DNA from: a virus
Taxonomy: Duplodnaviria > Caudoviricetes
Virus record (IMG/VR): IMGVR_UViG_3300032030_000040
Location: 33,913-97,912 of that record
DNA length: 64,000 bases
Strand: one strand, 5' to 3'
The notes under the pieces were generated by a model. It was not told the DNA's origin and did not search any database. It saw only the letters and a list, made by a program, of their open reading frames with translations. Position numbers and translations under genes: made by a program. Shown here one piece after another: positions 5,288 to 63,288 of the stretch. Position 1 is the first letter of the stretch. The number at the start of each line of letters is the position of its first letter.

Positions 5288-6600
5288 ACAAGCCTACAGA
5301 CGATCAGGTACGCTGGATGGTTCGCCACCCTATTACGACTATTCTATCCTTCGTGTTTGAACTGCCGTTCTATATACTGGAGCTGATGGAATGGCTCTTG
5401 TTAAAAGCGGAAACCAAGGAACAACGTATAATAAGAATCAAGGTGCAAAGAGCAATAGCATATTACATAATAAGGTTTTTCAGATATTTAGAGTCATGAA
5501 TACAAGTATAGCAAACAAGGCCATGCTCCGCTTTGCCAAGGAGTATGCACAGAAGAACTGGCTACTCGAAGGATGGGTAAGACCAGATGATTTCTGGGCA
5601 AACAAGGTTGAAAAGTTCCTGCATCCAGAGAAGCCGCAGGTGATTGAGGTGAGCTTCGTTGCTCCAGTCTTTGATGAAGACAGGGAGAAGGGGGACTACT
5701 GGAAGATTCCGAGAGTGAGGATTGACAGCTATTGGGGACACCCACGGCTCAATGTGGTTGACAAGGAACATAACTTCTGCTGTATCTCCTATGACCGAGA
5801 GACCAACAAATTCAAGGAAGGTCAGTTCTGGGGAGAGCACGGACTGGAGCTTGCTCAGCGAGTCAAGGCAAAAATAGAGTTGTATATCCAGATGATGAAG
5901 GACGGTTACGATATGCAGATAGAACAACAAAAGCAATAGAATATGAAGAACTTACCAGAAAGCATCTTCCTCAACTTAGGAGAACTGTCTGAGGAAGATT
6001 TCAGAGAGACCGATTTTGCGGAGGCCCGCAAGGAGTGGGAAATAACGTGGTGTGAAGACAAGGTGCATGAACACGACATCGAGTATGTCCGCAAGGACCT
6101 GGCAGAAGGTTCCAAGTGGCACAGGTACGATGAAGAGAAGCCCACGAAGGAGCTGAGTGCCTTAGTGGTTCATTCAGATACGAGTTTCGCCATCCGCTAT
6201 ACCATCAAGGACAGAAAGGGGAACTATGCCCTGCCAAAGAGCGAGAGAGGCTATGCGCCCTTGTTCTGGATGGAGGTGCCACAGATACCAGAGGAACTAA
6301 ATAGAAGGAGAAAGTAATATGGGACATGACCAGCCACAGATGCGGTTTTTTGCCGCAGAGCTTCGCAGGGAGCTCGAGAGGACAGCAGTGGAAGGCTGCT
6401 ATTGTGAAGTCGAGGACTACAATGACGGCACGGACGTACCGAAAATCAAGGTGAAGTCGAGTGCGCTCAATCCTGACCAGGCTTCTTTGTTCTGTCTTGA
6501 TGAAGTGGTAGAGTACTGCACCGCAAACGAGTTGCATCACTATGTGACAGTAGAACAGCAGCTGAGCGGGACAGTCATACCAATCATCGTAATCTTCTGA
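5284..6600 (+). CDS. Run of hypothetical genes (5284-5499, 5496-5939, 5943-6317 DUF551-like, 6319-6600)
   Basis: Tightly packed co-oriented ORFs; W..Y.EEKP...FWMEVP in 5943-6317. Confidence 0.55.
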
Positions 6601-6700
6601 CGGCAGTTGCGCTTCCTCAGTACTTACCTTATTTGCTACATGGGAAGTTTTGAATGAGGGGAAGCAGCCGTCTGGGGCATCCGCTTTGGGTGCCCCTTTT
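6599..6700 (+). ncRNA. Candidate 3'-UTR-derived antisense sRNA (stem-loop displaying complements of the cassette leader boxes) plus terminator
   Basis: Stem GACGGC..GCTTCCTCA / TGAGGGGAAGC..GCCGTC encloses TACTTACCTTATTTGCTAC and GAAGTTTTGAATG, followed by GGGGCATCC-GCTTT-GGGTGCCCC-TTTT. Confidence 0.55.
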
Positions 6701-6738: not shown

Positions 6739-7278
6739 ATGGCAAGCAAACAGGAATCTCTTCAGGAATACTTTCTTATGGCAAAGGAGATCGCCAGACA
6801 GGAAAAGAGTCTCGGCATTGAGCATTGGGACTTCATTTCCATCGAGAGGGACGGTGACAAGGCAGGCGAGTATGTCAGGCTCTATCACTACGACCTTCCG
6901 AGGCAGATTGCGGAGAAGTACGACTGGGTTGTACGGTGGCGTGCTGCAAAGCTCCAGTGCCAATACCCTCGCTATGGTGTGCGCATCTACCATTCCCCAT
7001 ACAAGAAGGTGATGGGCGTGAACATCGGTATGCAAAAGGATATCGACACCTTTGTAGCTGCCAAGGCACAGTACACCAAGCAGAAGCGTATTCTTGACAC
7101 CTACATATCTGAGCAGAAGGTAATGAACATTTTCTTCAGCGAAGACACGGACCAGGAGGTAATCAGGATAAAGGCCAAGCTCGAAGTTAAGAGAGAAAAC
7201 ATCGAACAGGCAGAGGCAAGGCTTATCGAGAAGGTTAAACAATTCAAATCACAGCAACATGGGAAGACCTCAGTCTAA
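6739..7278 (+). CDS. Hypothetical phage protein
   Basis: 179-aa ORF. Confidence 0.65.
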   Translation: MASKQESLQEYFLMAKEIARQEKSLGIEHWDFISIERDGDKAGEYVRLYHYDLPRQIAEKYDWVVRWRAAKLQCQYPRYGVRIYHSPYKKVMGVNIGMQKDIDTFVAAKAQYTKQKRILDTYISEQKVMNIFFSEDTDQEVIRIKAKLEVKRENIEQAEARLIEKVKQFKSQQHGKTSV

Positions 7279-7544: not shown

Positions 7545-7659
7545 TTTCTTGTAATTTCCCCGAAAAAATATGCCTAAAAACTTGCATATTTGATAAACTT
7601 TTTGTACCTTTGTAATAGCAAATAAGATAAATACAAACTTTCAAAACTTAGGAATCATG
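7545..7659 (+). promoter_or_regulatory. Repeated promoter/leader cassette copy 2
   Basis: CTTGCATATTTGATAAACTTTTTGTACCTTTG-TAATAGCAAATAAGATAA...TTCAAAACTTAG...ATG. Confidence 0.85.
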
Positions 7660-7986
7660 CAGAAAATTAGTTTGAAGAAAGAGACAATCAAGGCCATCGC
7701 AGACCGAATCAACGGTACTGAAGCCTCTGGCCAGTTGACAACTGTCACTGATGCGGAGTTCGAGCAGGACGGTTTCCTTATCATGGTAGATTACGAGGTC
7801 TATGGTGAGTGGCGTGACCAACAGATGAGACACAGCGAGGTTCCCTATAACAACATCGAGGACCTGTCAGGCTGGGAGCGTGACGGTGCAGCCATCAGCT
7901 TCATCAATGCCTATGGGGATGACGGTGAAGACGTGGAGATTGCCCAGAGCGACCTTGATGCCCTGATGGAAGAGATAGCAGCTTAA
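7657..7986 (+). CDS. Acidic hypothetical protein
   Basis: 109 aa, very D/E-rich, first gene after cassette 2. Confidence 0.65.
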   Translation: MQKISLKKETIKAIADRINGTEASGQLTTVTDAEFEQDGFLIMVDYEVYGEWRDQQMRHSEVPYNNIEDLSGWERDGAAISFINAYGDDGEDVEIAQSDLDALMEEIAA

Positions 7987-8037
7987 CTGAGGACAGGGGG
8001 CTTGCTCCCTTTCTCTTCACCATAAAATCAGAGAAGA

Positions 8038-8373
8038 ATGAAACTATACATTGCAACACCAATCAACTCCAGAACGGAGAAGACGTTAGAAGAGAAGAAA
8101 CGTGCGGCCAAGCACCGAATAAATCTCCTGAAGGAAATCATCAGCAGCGATATGCGCTTCAGAAAGTATGACAAGCTGGTGAGCACCTTTGACATCAAGC
8201 AGATTATCAGCACGACTACTGAGGAAGTGGCATTAGGCCACTGTGTGACGGCAGTCCTTCAGAGCGATGCCATCTATCTCGATCACGGCTGGAACGCCAG
8301 TAACGGGTGTAACCTCGAATACCGAGCAGCTAAGATTTACGGGAAGGCTATTTACGAACACGATAAAATGTAA
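8038..8373 (+). CDS. DUF4406-like (nucleoside deoxyribosyltransferase-like fold) protein
   Basis: KLYIATPI...DAIYLDHGWNASNGCNLEYRAAKIYGK. Confidence 0.7.
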   Translation: MKLYIATPINSRTEKTLEEKKRAAKHRINLLKEIISSDMRFRKYDKLVSTFDIKQIISTTTEEVALGHCVTAVLQSDAIYLDHGWNASNGCNLEYRAAKIYGKAIYEHDKM

Positions 8374-8378
8374 GCATT

Positions 8379-8864
8379 ATGAACAAAGAGACTATTCAGG
8401 GATTCACCGTAGAGTGTTACGACAGCTGGAAGTTCTGTCAGGATGAAGAGCAGAACAAGGTGGTGGCACAGCTTCCTCATCTGGCATACGATGAGCTGCT
8501 GCATCACCGGAGCATGGAGCGTGGTAAGGTGTATCGGGCACAGCTGACGCTCGACGTGTCTAATCAGGATATGGAGGTGCCGATGAAGCCCGCATACCTT
8601 GGGGAAATGTTCAAGCACAACTTCGTCGAGACCACCGACAAGAAGAATGTCTTTGTCGGCTGGATAGTAAGGACTCGGACGAACTACAGCGATAAGGACA
8701 GCCTGACGTTCTATCTTGAGCACCCAGGCCCAGGAATACAGAGGTGGTGCGGAATCTGTTTCGGTTACGGAATGTTCTGGCATCCCATGCCATCGACTAT
8801 GCTCATGGATAGCACCCCACTTAACACCCCATTGAAATGCTTATTGACCATCGAGTTAATATAG
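8379..8864 (+). CDS. Hypothetical phage protein
   Basis: 161-aa ORF. Confidence 0.6.
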   Translation: MNKETIQGFTVECYDSWKFCQDEEQNKVVAQLPHLAYDELLHHRSMERGKVYRAQLTLDVSNQDMEVPMKPAYLGEMFKHNFVETTDKKNVFVGWIVRTRTNYSDKDSLTFYLEHPGPGIQRWCGICFGYGMFWHPMPSTMLMDSTPLNTPLKCLLTIELI

Positions 8865-8905
8865 AGACACAGCGCCATGCGCTGGAATTTGCTAAGTTTT
8901 GAAGT

Positions 8906-8945
8906 TGTAGCTGCTCGTCAGGGATGATAGGCAGCTACATTTTTT
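8906..8945 (+). terminator. Rho-independent terminator preceded by anti-leader sequence
   Basis: TGTAGCTGC...GCAGCTACA followed by a T-run. Confidence 0.75.
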
Positions 8946-8984
8946 AACGTGGATTTGCTTACATATTTTAACGTTATTCTTCAA

Positions 8985-9081
8985 AACTTTCTGGCCGAAA
9001 ACTTGCATATTTGATAAACTTTTTGTACCTTTGAAGTAGCAAATAAGATAAGTAACAACAATTCAAAACTTCAAAATTATG
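8985..9081 (+). promoter_or_regulatory. Repeated promoter/leader cassette copy 3
   Basis: Same -33/-7 and leader boxes ahead of ATG 9079. Confidence 0.85.
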
Positions 9082-9645
9082 GCAAATACTTGTTTTACGG
9101 ACTACACGTTTGTAGGAGAGCCAGAGAAAGCGAAGAAGCTGCTGGCAGATTTGAAGAGAGTCATTAACACCAAGCGTAAGGATTTAGGTCCTGACACCTA
9201 CCTGTCTGAAAGCGACTGGCTGGGATGGATAGTAAGGGACTTGCTTGGCAAGGATGAGAAGGCCGACAATATCCATTGTGGGGGGACGTTCTATCTGGAG
9301 GATGAGCTGACCAATAACGAGGTACGCTTTACGACGGCGACACGCTGGACGCCCTGCAGGGAAATGTTCAAGATGCTTGCAGAGAAGTACGGCCTTGACC
9401 ATTACTACTACGCAGAGGAAATCGGCTGTGAGCTGCTGGAAACCAATGACGACCAAGGAATGTACTATACCAACCGCTACATGGTCACTGGCTCAGACAT
9501 CGAGGACCAGTATTTCGATACCAAGGAAGATGTGCTGGCCATGCTCAAGGAAGAGCTCGGCAAGGATTTCGGTAGCTGGGAGGAAATGAGAGCCGATGAA
9601 GAGAATACCTACGAATACAATGTTTATGAGATAGACGTAGTGTAA
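9079..9645 (+). CDS. Acidic protein, DUF1281/ferredoxin-like fold family
   Basis: MANTC...FTTATRWTP...YYYAEEIGCE pattern. Confidence 0.5.
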   Translation: MANTCFTDYTFVGEPEKAKKLLADLKRVINTKRKDLGPDTYLSESDWLGWIVRDLLGKDEKADNIHCGGTFYLEDELTNNEVRFTTATRWTPCREMFKMLAEKYGLDHYYYAEEIGCELLETNDDQGMYYTNRYMVTGSDIEDQYFDTKEDVLAMLKEELGKDFGSWEEMRADEENTYEYNVYEIDVV

Positions 9646-30586: not shown

Positions 30587-30710
30587 GTGTATTATTATAT
30601 AGGTAATAGTTAGTAGTTAGTTTTTTAGTAGTTTGTTATCCTCAAAGCGTTGGGGAAAGTGAACTGAAAACTTTTTCTTTCATACGGAAAAAGAATCGTG
30701 AATAACTCAG

Positions 30711-44120: not shown

Positions 44121-44235
44121 CTTTCTCCCGAAATATTTGCATATTTGATAAAATTTACCTACCTTTGTAATAGCAAATAAGATAAATACAAGGTAACGGC
44201 CATCTAACCAGTGGCCACAATTCAAAACTATTATG
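44121..44235 (+). promoter_or_regulatory. Repeated promoter/leader cassette copy 5 (leader with GGCCA..TGGCC hairpin)
   Basis: TTTGCATATTTGATAAA...TACCTTTG-TAATAGCAAATAAGATAA...ACAATTCAAAAC. Confidence 0.85.
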
Positions 44236-45321
44236 GCACATAATTTGGAAATCAATGCTGGAGTAGCCAGCTATGTAGAGAACGGAAGGCAGGAGCGTGC
44301 ATGGCACAATCTCGGCCAGGTATTTGACGGACCGATGACGGTAGAGCAGGCTCTTGAGCTGTCTCATGCCGACTATCAGGTAGAGCTTCAGCCCGTGATA
44401 GCAATGTCACCTGAGATTCAGGATTTGATGGCGAAGGGCGAGAAGATTGACCCAGACCTGCTGCTGTCTCTCGTCATCCCAAAGCGCAAGGCGACTATGC
44501 GCATGGATAAGACGAAGGCGCTGGGTGTGGTATCAGACCAGTACGGCGTAGTCCAGAACGCCGACGCCTTCAAGTTCATCGACACCATCTGCACGGGTGA
44601 AATGGGTAACAGTCACGTCCCTGTCATCGAGACGGCTGGTGTTCTTGGTCAGGGTGAGCGTGTTTTCATCACCGCCAAGTTCCCTGAGCAGATTCGTCTC
44701 GACAACAAGGGAGAGGACATCGTGGAAATGTATGTGGTATTCACCACCAGCCATGACGGCACGGGTGCTGTGAATTGTCTGGTGACTCCTACCCGTGTGG
44801 TATGTAACAACACTCTTAACTTCGCCATGTCGCACAATGTCGGCAAGCTGTCGCTTCGTCATTCCTCCGGAATCATGAACCGTCTCGATCTGGCCAACAA
44901 GGAGAACGCTGAGTTTGCCTACAAGGCCCTGAATATGTATAACATCTATAAGAAGTCGATGGAGCAACACTTCGAGCATCTGCAGAACATCAAGATATCG
45001 GAGAAGCAGCTTGACTCAATCCTTGCGGAAGTCCTGCTGTCTGAGAAGAATCTGGAGGTCTATAGAGCAACGGGCGACGTTCATCATCAGGATATCACAG
45101 CCATTGGCCGTAACCTCATAGACAAGGTACGTGGTACGGTGGAAAGTGGTATCGGTCAGGAGTACGGAGAGCGTGGTACTGGAATGTGGGTCATCAACGG
45201 CATAACGTCATACTACCAAAACGAGGCACGTTTCCGTAATGACGAGAGCAAGTTTGACAGCATCATGCAGGGCAACGCTGCCAAGAAGGTGCAGCAGGCC
45301 TACGACCTTATCACCGCTTAG
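44233..45321 (+). CDS. DUF932/TIGR03299-like phage/plasmid protein
   Basis: AWHNLG, YGVVQNADAF, ETAGVLGQGERVF, TSHDGTGA, TPTRVVCNNTL. Confidence 0.85.
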   Translation: MAHNLEINAGVASYVENGRQERAWHNLGQVFDGPMTVEQALELSHADYQVELQPVIAMSPEIQDLMAKGEKIDPDLLLSLVIPKRKATMRMDKTKALGVVSDQYGVVQNADAFKFIDTICTGEMGNSHVPVIETAGVLGQGERVFITAKFPEQIRLDNKGEDIVEMYVVFTTSHDGTGAVNCLVTPTRVVCNNTLNFAMSHNVGKLSLRHSSGIMNRLDLANKENAEFAYKALNMYNIYKKSMEQHFEHLQNIKISEKQLDSILAEVLLSEKNLEVYRATGDVHHQDITAIGRNLIDKVRGTVESGIGQEYGERGTGMWVINGITSYYQNEARFRNDESKFDSIMQGNAAKKVQQAYDLITA

Positions 45322-45323
45322 GA

Positions 45324-45572
45324 ATGGCCAAGATAGAGTTTCTGGGCGTACTGGCAAAGGAGAAGCACGAATATGAGGAACTGTACAGACTATTCAGTTC
45401 CTCATACAAGTGCGCCTGTCGATGCGACCCAGACTTCTTTCCCAACGTCAAGAAGCTGTGCGAAACCATCAGCACGGACAGGGAGCTTCAGTACGGGCTC
45501 CTTACCCTGCTGAAGAACTTCAAGGTGGCCGTCGAGCAGAACCAGAAGTTCAAGGAGAGTCTGGAGGACTGA
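45324..45572 (+). CDS. Hypothetical protein
   Basis: 82-aa ORF. Confidence 0.5.
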   Translation: MAKIEFLGVLAKEKHEYEELYRLFSSSYKCACRCDPDFFPNVKKLCETISTDRELQYGLLTLLKNFKVAVEQNQKFKESLED

Positions 45573-45580
45573 TAATCACT

Positions 45581-45699
45581 AAAAAAACTTGCAAATTTCC
45601 CAAAAAAACATGGTCAAAAATTTGCATATTTGATAAACTTTTCGTACCTTTGAAGTAGCAAATAAGATAAGTATTAACATTCAAAACTTAGAGATTATG
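45581..45699 (+). promoter_or_regulatory. Repeated promoter/leader cassette copy 6
   Basis: Same boxes ahead of ATG 45697. Confidence 0.85.
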
Positions 45700-48394: not shown

Positions 48395-48694
48395 ATGGCA
48401 CGGAGTTCTTACAAGCAGCTCAACAGAGAGGCAGACCAGTGTGGGTACGGCACTTTCGAGACACAGCTAATCAAGCTGACGTTCGCCGGAAAGGACAGTG
48501 ATGTAGATTTTCTGCTGGAGTCCGCTTCATGCCATGCAAAGAAGAAGGTACTGCTTGACCTGATACGCACACTGGGAGAGTGTCACGAATGGTATTCCCA
48601 GGAACAAGTGGCAAAGGTGGTCGGACTGGCCACGAAGATAGTGGAACAACTGTTAAACCAAGATAAAGAGACACAGATATCATCTGAGTTTTGA
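48395..48694 (+). CDS. Hypothetical protein
   Basis: 99-aa ORF; followed by terminator 48712-48750. Confidence 0.55.
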   Translation: MARSSYKQLNREADQCGYGTFETQLIKLTFAGKDSDVDFLLESASCHAKKKVLLDLIRTLGECHEWYSQEQVAKVVGLATKIVEQLLNQDKETQISSEF

Positions 48695-48760
48695 ATTGTA
48701 AATGTTTGCTCGGCTCATCGTCCCCTGTGTGGCGGTGGGCCATTTTTTTTGCATTTTCGC

Positions 48761-62578: not shown

Positions 62579-62643
62579 TTCAATGCAAATAAGATAAAAC
62601 AAAGGTAACGGCCAGCCAACCACTGGCCACAATTCAAAACATT

Positions 62644-63288
62644 ATGGAATTATTCAAGAAACTATCCGAGAGTATGGAAGCAGGCAGTACCGTGGTTATG
62701 ACGGTGGCCAAGAGTGAGAACGGAATGACGGTGAGTGTCCTGCCTGGCAACAGTCTGGTCAAGGATGCAGCCAAGAACAAGTTCATCCCCATCTGCATGA
62801 CGGGAACGCCAGAGGAAATAGACGAGAGCTTCCTCGATACTGCGCTGCGTCCTATTGCCAGAGCCAACGGGCTCCTGTCTAACATCAAGGACTTCGAGCA
62901 GTCCACGATAGCAGCCAAGGCCGCATCTGAAATGGAGAAGAAGGCCAAGGAAGAGCAGAAGAAGGTTAGCAGCACTTTCTCTGACTGGCTGGCACTGGCC
63001 GAGAAGAACTACGGCGAAGACAAGTTCAAGGATGCTATCACCTGTCTCAACAATGCTGAGAAGATTGCTGACAAGGTGAATGGTGGCCAGACGAAGATTG
63101 ACGCCATGCGTAAGAAAATCCAAGAGGTTCTGGGTGAGGGCACGATGTTCGGAGCAGCCAAGGAAGACAAGAGTGACGGGAAGAACGTCAAGCTCAACGG
63201 CAACACCAAATCTGCAGCAGCCGAGAAACCAGCCGAGAAACCAGCCGAGGAAACGGCAGACGAGAGTGAGACAACGGAAGAAGAATAA
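62644..63288 (+). CDS. PRTRC system protein E
   Basis: MTVSVLP...DAA....P....GTPEEID..F...I pattern; precedes protein C. Confidence 0.8.
   Translation: MELFKKLSESMEAGSTVVMTVAKSENGMTVSVLPGNSLVKDAAKNKFIPICMTGTPEEIDESFLDTALRPIARANGLLSNIKDFEQSTIAAKAASEMEKKAKEEQKKVSSTFSDWLALAEKNYGEDKFKDAITCLNNAEKIADKVNGGQTKIDAMRKKIQEVLGEGTMFGAAKEDKSDGKNVKLNGNTKSAAAEKPAEKPAEETADESETTEEE

Follow-up and report, generated by a model that had tools for sequence, protein, structure and literature searches.

The c4 antisense RNA of phages P1 and P7 (the immI locus) is excised from the transcript of its own target and has two short complementary boxes. It is made by the phage and pairs with a phage mRNA around the ribosome binding site, which blocks translation, and the specificity of the pairing stretch varies between related phages (PMC12197685; PMC8201110). 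Base-pairing small RNAs (sRNAs) that act on start regions have also been demonstrated in Bacteroides, where MasB and GibS bind the 5' regions of the mRNAs that they target. The GibS duplex spans the start codon, and that of MasB was confirmed by compensatory mutants (PMC7366714; PMC10994844). A study of B. thetaiotaomicron reports 21 candidate sRNAs that derive from 5' or 3' UTRs (PMC7366714). A different arrangement is known from the hok mRNA of plasmid R1 (hok/sok), in which closure between the 3' and 5' ends prevents translation until the 3' end is trimmed (PMC9841398). Few sRNA mechanisms are known in the Bacteroidales, whose translation is initiated without Shine-Dalgarno pairing. The full text of a 2025 review of phage-derived sRNAs has no occurrence of Bacteroides, and our literature search found no paper describing an anti-leader design in 3' UTRs of the kind presented here.

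The element under study, E2, is carried by a phage with a genome of 97,912 nt (97.9 kb), of which the window analyzed, to which the coordinates below refer, is the last 64 kb (64,000 nt). The first 100 nt of the contig, but not the first 200, were found again at contig position 97,785, in the last ~128 nt, and this end repeat indicates that the genome is probably complete and circularly permuted. The phage is a prophage of rumen/gut Bacteroidales and nearly all of its genes are on the + strand. About a dozen of its operons open with one type of promoter and a leader of ~40 nt, a combination we refer to as a cassette. The cassette promoters are of the Bacteroidota type, with TTTG near -33 and TAnnTTTG at -7 (consensus from PMC7366714). 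The conserved leader has box A (TAGCAAATAAGATAAGTA) at or near the transcript start, and box B (CATTCAAAACTT; core TTCAAAACTT), often with AG next to it, at about -17 to -6 relative to the ATG. The word GCAAATAAGA was found at 14 sites genome-wide, 12 of which have the full word TAGCAAATAAGA. The full word is restricted to the + strand, nine of its 12 copies are within the window, and most of the sites are preceded by a promoter cassette. The same genome has a minus-strand RNA gene, with its own promoter, that carries the full reverse complement of the leader. Two leader-like sequences (44171-44240 and 62583-62650) have a hairpin, GGTAACGGCCA...TGGCCAC, inserted between boxes A and B; at the 62583 site ATGCAAAT replaces TAGCAAAT and the upstream cassette promoter is absent.

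E2 is at the 3' end of the operon that cassette 2 opens (Table 1). The products of this operon are a 109-aa protein with no family, a 111-aa DUF4406 or nucleoside 2-deoxyribosyltransferase-like protein, and a 161-aa protein with no family. The first-pass annotation of this DNA had placed an element, ATTTGCTAAGTTTTGAAGTTGTA, at 8887-8909 between a small hairpin and the terminator, and both its letters and its coordinates were confirmed. In order after the stop codon there is a 6-bp hairpin, the stretch ATTTGCTAAGTTTTGAAG (8887-8904), and the terminator, which is a strong one. The anti-A core at the start of this stretch, ATTTGCTA, is complementary to the opening eight bases of every leader and is, as had been proposed, the reverse complement of TAGCAAAT. 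The proposed 12/12 match to box B was also reproduced: CTAAGTTTTGAA (8892-8903) is the reverse complement of TTCAAAACTTAG in four of the window's nine cassettes (2, 6, 7, and 8), where the perfect 12-mer targets are at 7640, 45680, 48839, and 49629, respectively. Direct reading likewise recovered the gapped extension of this match to TACAAACTTTCAAAACTTAG of cassette 2, at 18/20 with two 1-nt gaps. No TAnnTTTG -7 box was found between 7605 and 9026, so that no internal promoter is visible; E2 is probably part of the operon transcript and not a separate gene. A 16-codon open reading frame at 8877-8927 (MRWNLLSFEVVAARQG) was dropped, as its counterpart is absent from the ortholog of E2 in the diverged provirus G001 described below.

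Table 1. Positions of E2, its operon, and related elements. Positions are those of the window except where a contig handle (L) is given.
Feature	Position	Strand	Remark
Cassette 2	7579..7656	+	Opens the operon that E2 closes; ATG at 7657
Cassette 2 -7 box, TACCTTTG	7605-7612	+	Bacteroidota-type promoter
Cassette 2 box A, TAGCAAAT	7616-7623	+	Leader
Cassette 2 box B, TTCAAAACTTAG	7640-7651	+	Leader
Three operon genes	7657..8864	+	Last stop codon ends at 8864
E2 5' hairpin	8870..8884	+	CAGCGC (8870-8875), CAT, GCGCTG (8879-8884); in MFE and centroid folds
E2 anti-A core, ATTTGCTA	8887..8894	+	Complements first 8 nt of the leader, TAGCAAAT
E2 anti-B seed, CTAAGTTTTGAAG	8892..8904	+	12/12 box B complement
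E2 intrinsic terminator	8906..8945	+	Stem-loop 8906-8939, T-run 8940-8945
Box-B-like direct copy, CTTCAAAACTT	8979..8989	+	85 nt downstream of the seed
Cassette 3 (promoter and leader)	9000..9078	+	Top predicted pairing partner of E2, -17.4 kcal/mol
E1	6599..6700	+	Larger; 18-nt anti-A and 12-nt anti-B in hairpin loop, terminator after
E3	48684..48749	+	Third anti-leader seed (48684-48696), missed in the earlier annotation
Group-2 stop-codon seeds	L189:10064-10125, L225:7662-7723, L305:7105-7165, L197:6943-6975, L215:9091-9123, L300:3650-3680
Group-2 ATGTTTAGAG-GAG-TTCTTATTTGCTA element	L165:900-1015, L216:7460-7570		Between short hairpin and terminator
Group-2 upstream box A copies	L215:6570, L219:986/2844/7758, L189:1329/3924/6243/7961, and others

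The window has two sister elements, E1 and E3. The earlier description of E2 as an independent, compact instance of the design at 6599-6700 (E1) was supported, in that E2 is a separate and compact anti-leader element. The seed of E3 (CTGAGTTTTGAAT) overlaps the stop codon of the gene at 48395-48694 and is followed by a terminator and then by cassette 7. It is 13/13 complementary to the leader of cassette 3, and its sole DNA mismatch to the TTAG leaders would be a G.U wobble in the RNA sense. In the G001 homolog of E3 (L017:8929), ATTTGCTA is located 4 nt upstream of the anti-B seed. E1, E2, and this E3-like element of G001 all have anti-A followed by anti-B, an order that is the opposite of that in a reverse-complemented leader and is unlike that of the minus-strand RNA gene. 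As a result of this reversal, one leader could not form a single continuous duplex with both parts, and we speculate that anti-A and anti-B may be alternative seeds, or may bring the 5' end next to box B. Between E1 and the gene at 6739-7278, which comes directly after it, there is no cassette; in a close relative, in the MAG RUG10554 (CACWFV010000001.1; L319:2409), a cassette and a different gene come 133 bp after E1.

The nine-nucleotide seed core AGTTTTGAA has three copies on the + (coding) strand of the whole genome, at 6646 (E1), 8895 (E2), and 48687 (E3), and all three are situated between a stop codon and a terminator. The first-pass annotation had called for such a count, on the ground that a motif at background frequency irrespective of position would speak against its proposal, and the terminator-proximal location of every copy is the opposite of that outcome. 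The converse search was for complements of the E2 seed genome-wide. All four perfect complements of at least 12 nt are in cassette leaders, as are eight of the nine of at least 10 nt, the ninth being the box-B-like sequence at 8979-8989, which with the seed (8894-8904) makes an 11-bp inverted repeat. Leader complements of 12-13 nt, no more than 45 nt before the stem, precede three of the ~9-11 detectable + strand terminators. In the related phages that we term group 1, the word AGTTTTGA, which reads identically backwards, was found in seven of 31 distinct terminator-upstream windows, against an expectation of 0.09 (the mean over 420 same-composition permutations of the word). Two weaker complements were considered as further anti-leader elements and rejected. 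The sequence GTGAATAACT (30688-30697), immediately 5' of the terminator ahead of cassette 4, is complementary over 10 nt to the variable spacer AGTTATTCAC in the leader of cassette 1 and is within chance expectation. Similarly, ATAATCACTAA (45572-45582), right after the stop codon of the gene at 45324-45572, is complementary over 11 nt to the end of the cassette 7 leader together with the start codon (TTAGTGATTAT) and is within chance expectation, or of borderline significance.

RNA folding of the 84-nt E2 stretch gave a hairpin, an open linker, and the terminator, with an energy of -32.1 kcal/mol (z = -3.9). Positions 8885-8900 were predicted to be mostly unpaired, with probabilities of 0.4-1.0 and segment means of 0.5-0.8 in contexts of 80, 300, and 600 nt, and the last four bases of the seed, GAAG (8901-8904), were predicted to pair with the U-tail. 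Cofolding of E2 with the leaders gave net gains of -12 to -17 kcal/mol with the cost of unfolding included, and in the duplexes inspected, those with cassettes 2 and 3, the predicted pairing starts at about -23 or -20 and ends at -6 or -3 relative to the AUG. The predicted hybridization energies with leaders are -14 to -17 kcal/mol. Controls with shuffled seeds had a mean of about -5 kcal/mol and none of 150 attained the observed value, while only 0.7% of random 56-nt targets were at -12 kcal/mol or lower. The trans-antisense arrangement of an accessible seed that is complementary to the start regions of its targets beyond chance was therefore found here. Cassettes 3, 9, and 1 (-17.4, -17.2, and -16.6 kcal/mol) gave larger gains than the operon's own cassette 2 (-15.0 kcal/mol). 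The annotation had hinted that E2 fits its own leader best; as this leader is not the top partner, the hint of self-pairing receives no special support. A simple genome-wide scan of duplex energies was abandoned as non-discriminating, because large loops let some coding sites score like leaders, and was replaced by the exact-complement counts and the cofolding with shuffled controls.

The leader family is present in many IMG/VR contigs and in prophages of Prevotella lacticifex JCM 34664, a sheep-rumen Bacteroidaceae MAG, the rumen MAG RUG10554, and Bacteroidaceae/Bacteroidales MAGs from the Hadza gut. E2 is identical in three further records, namely IMG 3300021256_000768, the prophage of RUG10554 (a Bacteroidales MAG), and one metagenome contig. 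The IMG record has the 81-nt UTR unchanged at 81/81 positions, next to two upstream genes with identities of 90.5% and 95.5%. The distinct versions of E2 are few, amounting to four near-identical copies and one diverged ortholog. That ortholog is in G001, a 74.6-kb provirus (IMG 3300037400_008007) and diverged relative with a syntenic operon that shares the first gene and the DUF4406 gene, has two extra genes, and ends with a different gene. At the end of this operon there is a different 5' hairpin at the same place, followed by CTAAGTTTTGAAG at 13/13 identity and by a terminator homologous to that of E2, the stem of which shows four compensatory changes (double and pair-preserving). The G001 ortholog of E2 does not have the anti-A core. 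The retention of the seed in the orthologous UTR of a diverged phage bears on the second outcome by which the first-pass annotation would have been refuted, absence of the motif from orthologous UTRs, and that outcome was not what we observed.

Wider searches returned little beyond these relatives. The composite ATTTGCTA...AGTTTTGA was in none of 25 other contigs with box A. A scan of viral contigs for ATTTGCTA-N(0-10)-AGTTTTGAA gave, among the matches listed, only the known relative; checking covered the matches in loci where GCAAATAAGA is present too, and the rest of these were chance occurrences in unrelated contigs. A metagenome scan with the seed and the start of the terminator had one match in the family, identical to E2, its other matches being in loci without GCAAATAAGA. 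Of 21 loci reached through the DUF4406 gene, 19 were in phages without the leader system and yielded no orthologous UTR. The P. lacticifex JCM 34664 prophage (NZ_BPTV01000001.1; L250, L267, L279, L294, L296) has at least nine cassettes and a box B variant, CACTTAAAACTCC/TNAACA, and no 3'-UTR seed was seen in the stretches of it that were examined. Downstream of E2, the intergenic region with cassette 3 (8946-9200) is 99% identical to the closest relative (L001:3570-3850) and the gene behind the cassette is different, with 66% identity over the first 120 nt (MANTCFTDY... versus MATTRRTAKEIR...), which indicates that the cassette is a mosaic joint.

A second set of related phages, group 2 (several IMG 3300045988 contigs and a Hadza MAG), has kept box A and has CACTTAAAATTCTAAAC as its box B instead of TTCAAAACTT. 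In group 1, with box TTCAAAAC, seeds of the AGTTTTGA type are in seven of 31 terminator-upstream windows and the other seed type was found in none. In group 2, with box CACTTAAA, AGTTTTGA was in none of 23 distinct terminator-upstream windows, and these phages have instead a mirror seed of their own, TAG-TTTAG-TTT-TTTTAAGTG (GTTTAG-TTT-TTTTAAGTG), directly 3' of stop codons. This seed mirrors the group-2 box with 9 + 6 bp around a small internal loop. It is found behind two different genes with differing downstream sequences, and one of these contexts (the L197 type) has no cassette after it. A further group-2 element, ATGTTTAGAG-GAG-TTCTTATTTGCTA, has anti-box-B before anti-box-A, the reverse of the group-1 order. 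The group-2 phages also have a terminator homologous to that of E2, from which the group-1 seed is missing. Seed and target thus changed together across relatives, in the direction that pairing predicts, in what are few independent events. Many cassette promoters of group 2 have a second, direct copy of box A (TTGCAAATAAGATAAAC) ~66 bp upstream, and box A may therefore also be an operator at the DNA level.

Together, these data indicate that E2 is a real, non-random, and conserved element. What is new here is E3, the diverged ortholog with its compensatory changes, the mirror seeds of group 2, and the finding that E2 is not predicted to pair best with the leader of its own operon. Short AT-rich words are common in intergenic DNA and the 10-11-nt complements near 30688 and 45572 are at chance level, but a chance similarity of an AT-rich intergenic stretch is hardly credible for E2, given that all three copies of the 9-mer genome-wide are in terminator-proximal UTRs, that seven of 31 terminator-upstream windows have the word against 0.09 expected, and that no shuffled seed of 150 equaled the real pairing energy. 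We consider it unlikely that the seed acts by folding back on the leader of the same mRNA (5'-3' closure), in a manner similar to the tac/fbi interaction of hok (PMC9841398), such that the full-length mRNA would be protected, or translated poorly, for as long as its 3' end is untrimmed. This explanation would account for the 12/12 complementarity to the operon's own leader, extendable to 18/20 with two gaps, and for the good match of E1, E2, and E3 each to the leader of its own operon, and the order of anti-A and anti-B could set the extreme 5' end beside box B on one splint. However, the leaders are nearly alike, which makes an own-leader match uninformative, and other leaders pair equally well or better, cassettes 3, 9, and 1 all exceeding the own leader in predicted energy. 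In addition, the gapped extension needs GTTGTA, which is part of the terminator stem, and the 3' element is missing from most of the leader-bearing operons.

Function at the level of DNA, whether as an operator or DNA-looping site bound by a phage regulator or as the arms of a segment whose inversion would flip the terminator or the promoter, seems to us quite improbable. Invertible promoters are common in Bacteroides (PMC10994844), and the terminator and promoter are indeed enclosed by inverted repeats, made up of the seed and the following cassette's box B, with the 11-bp repeat 8894-8904/8979-8989 enclosing the terminator alone. These arms are only 10-13 bp, though, the anti-A/A and anti-B/B pairs cross instead of nesting and so do not together make one inverted repeat, and a single orientation was found in all related contigs, with the promoter in gene orientation in ~150 of ~150 cassettes in relatives. 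An operator would fit the distance of 125-142 bp between the seed and the next leader in most instances, the strand bias (which a fixed orientation would also give), and the operator-like direct box A ~66 bp upstream of many promoters in related phages; it would not fit E1 in this genome or the L197-type seed of group 2, neither of which has a downstream cassette, and a DNA site would have no need of an open stretch between two covarying RNA hairpins. It is improbable, too, that E2 is a non-functional relic, that is, pieces of an inverted leader or of the sRNA gene left at operon ends by recombination at cassette joints. The joints are mosaic, as seen from the gene after cassette 3 (66% identity after 99%), and E1, E2, and E3 could be paralogs of one ancestral anti-A/anti-B unit, the order being shared. 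Against such an origin, neither an inverted leader nor the sRNA gene has the boxes in this order, the seed is 13/13 identical in an ortholog with diverged flanks, the UTR is conserved above the neighboring genes, and another phage group has a different seed that matches its own box.

We infer that E2 acts as an antisense element at the RNA level because it is in a transcribed 3' UTR, has an open seed between two hairpins, and has complementarity exclusive to the starts of a regulon, and also because the seed is constant while the hairpins change, group 2 has a matching seed of its own, and the phage has a minus-strand anti-leader RNA gene. Based on these features of the sequence, pairing of some kind by E2 as RNA is likely, and E2 is probably an RNA brake on the genes of about a dozen of the phage's own mRNAs. 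We favor trans action on many leaders over intramolecular pairing, and the more specific proposal, that E2 is an antisense seed in a 3' UTR and covers, in trans, the site where ribosomes land on leader-bearing mRNAs, has in our estimation an even chance of being correct. In this proposal the open stretch GAAUUUGCUAAGUUUU between the 5' hairpin and the terminator, which complements box B and the first bases of the leader, would be presented either by the terminated 3' end of the mRNA or by a fragment of ~80 nt cut from it and protected by both hairpins. Pairing with box B of leader mRNAs would cover the A-rich ribosome landing region used by the Shine-Dalgarno-less Bacteroidota, and would lower translation of the regulon and perhaps the stability of its mRNAs. 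Since the seed would be made only while a leader-bearing operon is transcribed, the outcome would be negative feedback or a delayed shut-off, with E2 working alongside the dedicated anti-leader sRNA gene of the phage.

If the seed does act as RNA, one shared leader would govern about a dozen dispersed operons, with the control encoded in part in the 3' ends of the regulated mRNAs themselves, and the whole would be a compact post-transcriptional feedback circuit in the Bacteroidales. The matched change of box and seed between the groups would be a natural specificity swap, and it hints at RNA-based cross-immunity among the prophages of gut and rumen. Experiments are feasible with P. lacticifex JCM 34664, a cultured lysogen that carries this leader family.

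With respect to known RNA families, no Rfam family was found at its gathering score in the whole window, and in 8780-9000 the C4 family of P1/P7 did not appear even with E <= 1 allowed. A permissive scan had one match, that of RF04177 (BTnc201, i.e., MasB), the full model of which (1-99) aligned to 8866-8948 with 30.0 bits against a gathering score of 105 (E of 0.00097 for a 221-nt search). Membership was rejected on the basis of this score and because neither the G001 ortholog nor E3 has a match, and the resemblance of E2 to MasB is a likeness of layout. Both have a 5' hairpin, a linker, and an intrinsic terminator, and the E2 seed aligns to the single-stranded linker of the model. MasB and GibS, trans-acting sRNAs of B. 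thetaiotaomicron, also share the host phylum of E2, a phylum without Hfq. They are, however, chromosomal genes with their own promoters and host targets, whereas E2 is promoterless, belongs to the 3' UTR of a phage operon, and is the mirror of a leader that the phage's own mRNAs share. E2 is similar to the 3'-UTR-derived sRNAs in that it comes after a stop codon, shares the intrinsic terminator of its parental mRNA, and has its seed just upstream of the terminator hairpin; the definition of that class (PMC7366714) requires a processing site or an internal start, and its known members regulate unrelated host genes and not the leader of their own regulon. With the tac/fbi of hok mRNA it shares a 3'-terminal element that is complementary to the 5' end of its own mRNA, and it differs in that the complement is common to many mRNAs, its own leader is not the best partner, and there is no toxin gene.

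Among phage systems, c4 is the closest to E2 in its logic. The c4 RNA is upstream of a single target operon (icd-ant) in an enterobacterial host, in contrast to E2, which is at the 3' end of an operon and has about a dozen dispersed predicted target operons in a Bacteroidales host. A broader and more doubtful possibility is that the sRNA gene and the operon 3' ends E1, E2, and E3 make up a distributed anti-leader network against the common leader, in which box B and seed would be a group specificity code, with TTCAAAACTT paired with AGTTTTGAA and CACTTAAAATTCTAAAC paired with GTTTAG..TTTTAAGTG, and by which the phage would throttle its own regulon and perhaps those of incoming relatives. If this were the case, the network would be a type of RNA immunity comparable to the heteroimmunity of P1 and P7, but regulon-wide and, in a host that initiates translation without Shine-Dalgarno pairing, located partly in the 3' ends of mRNAs.
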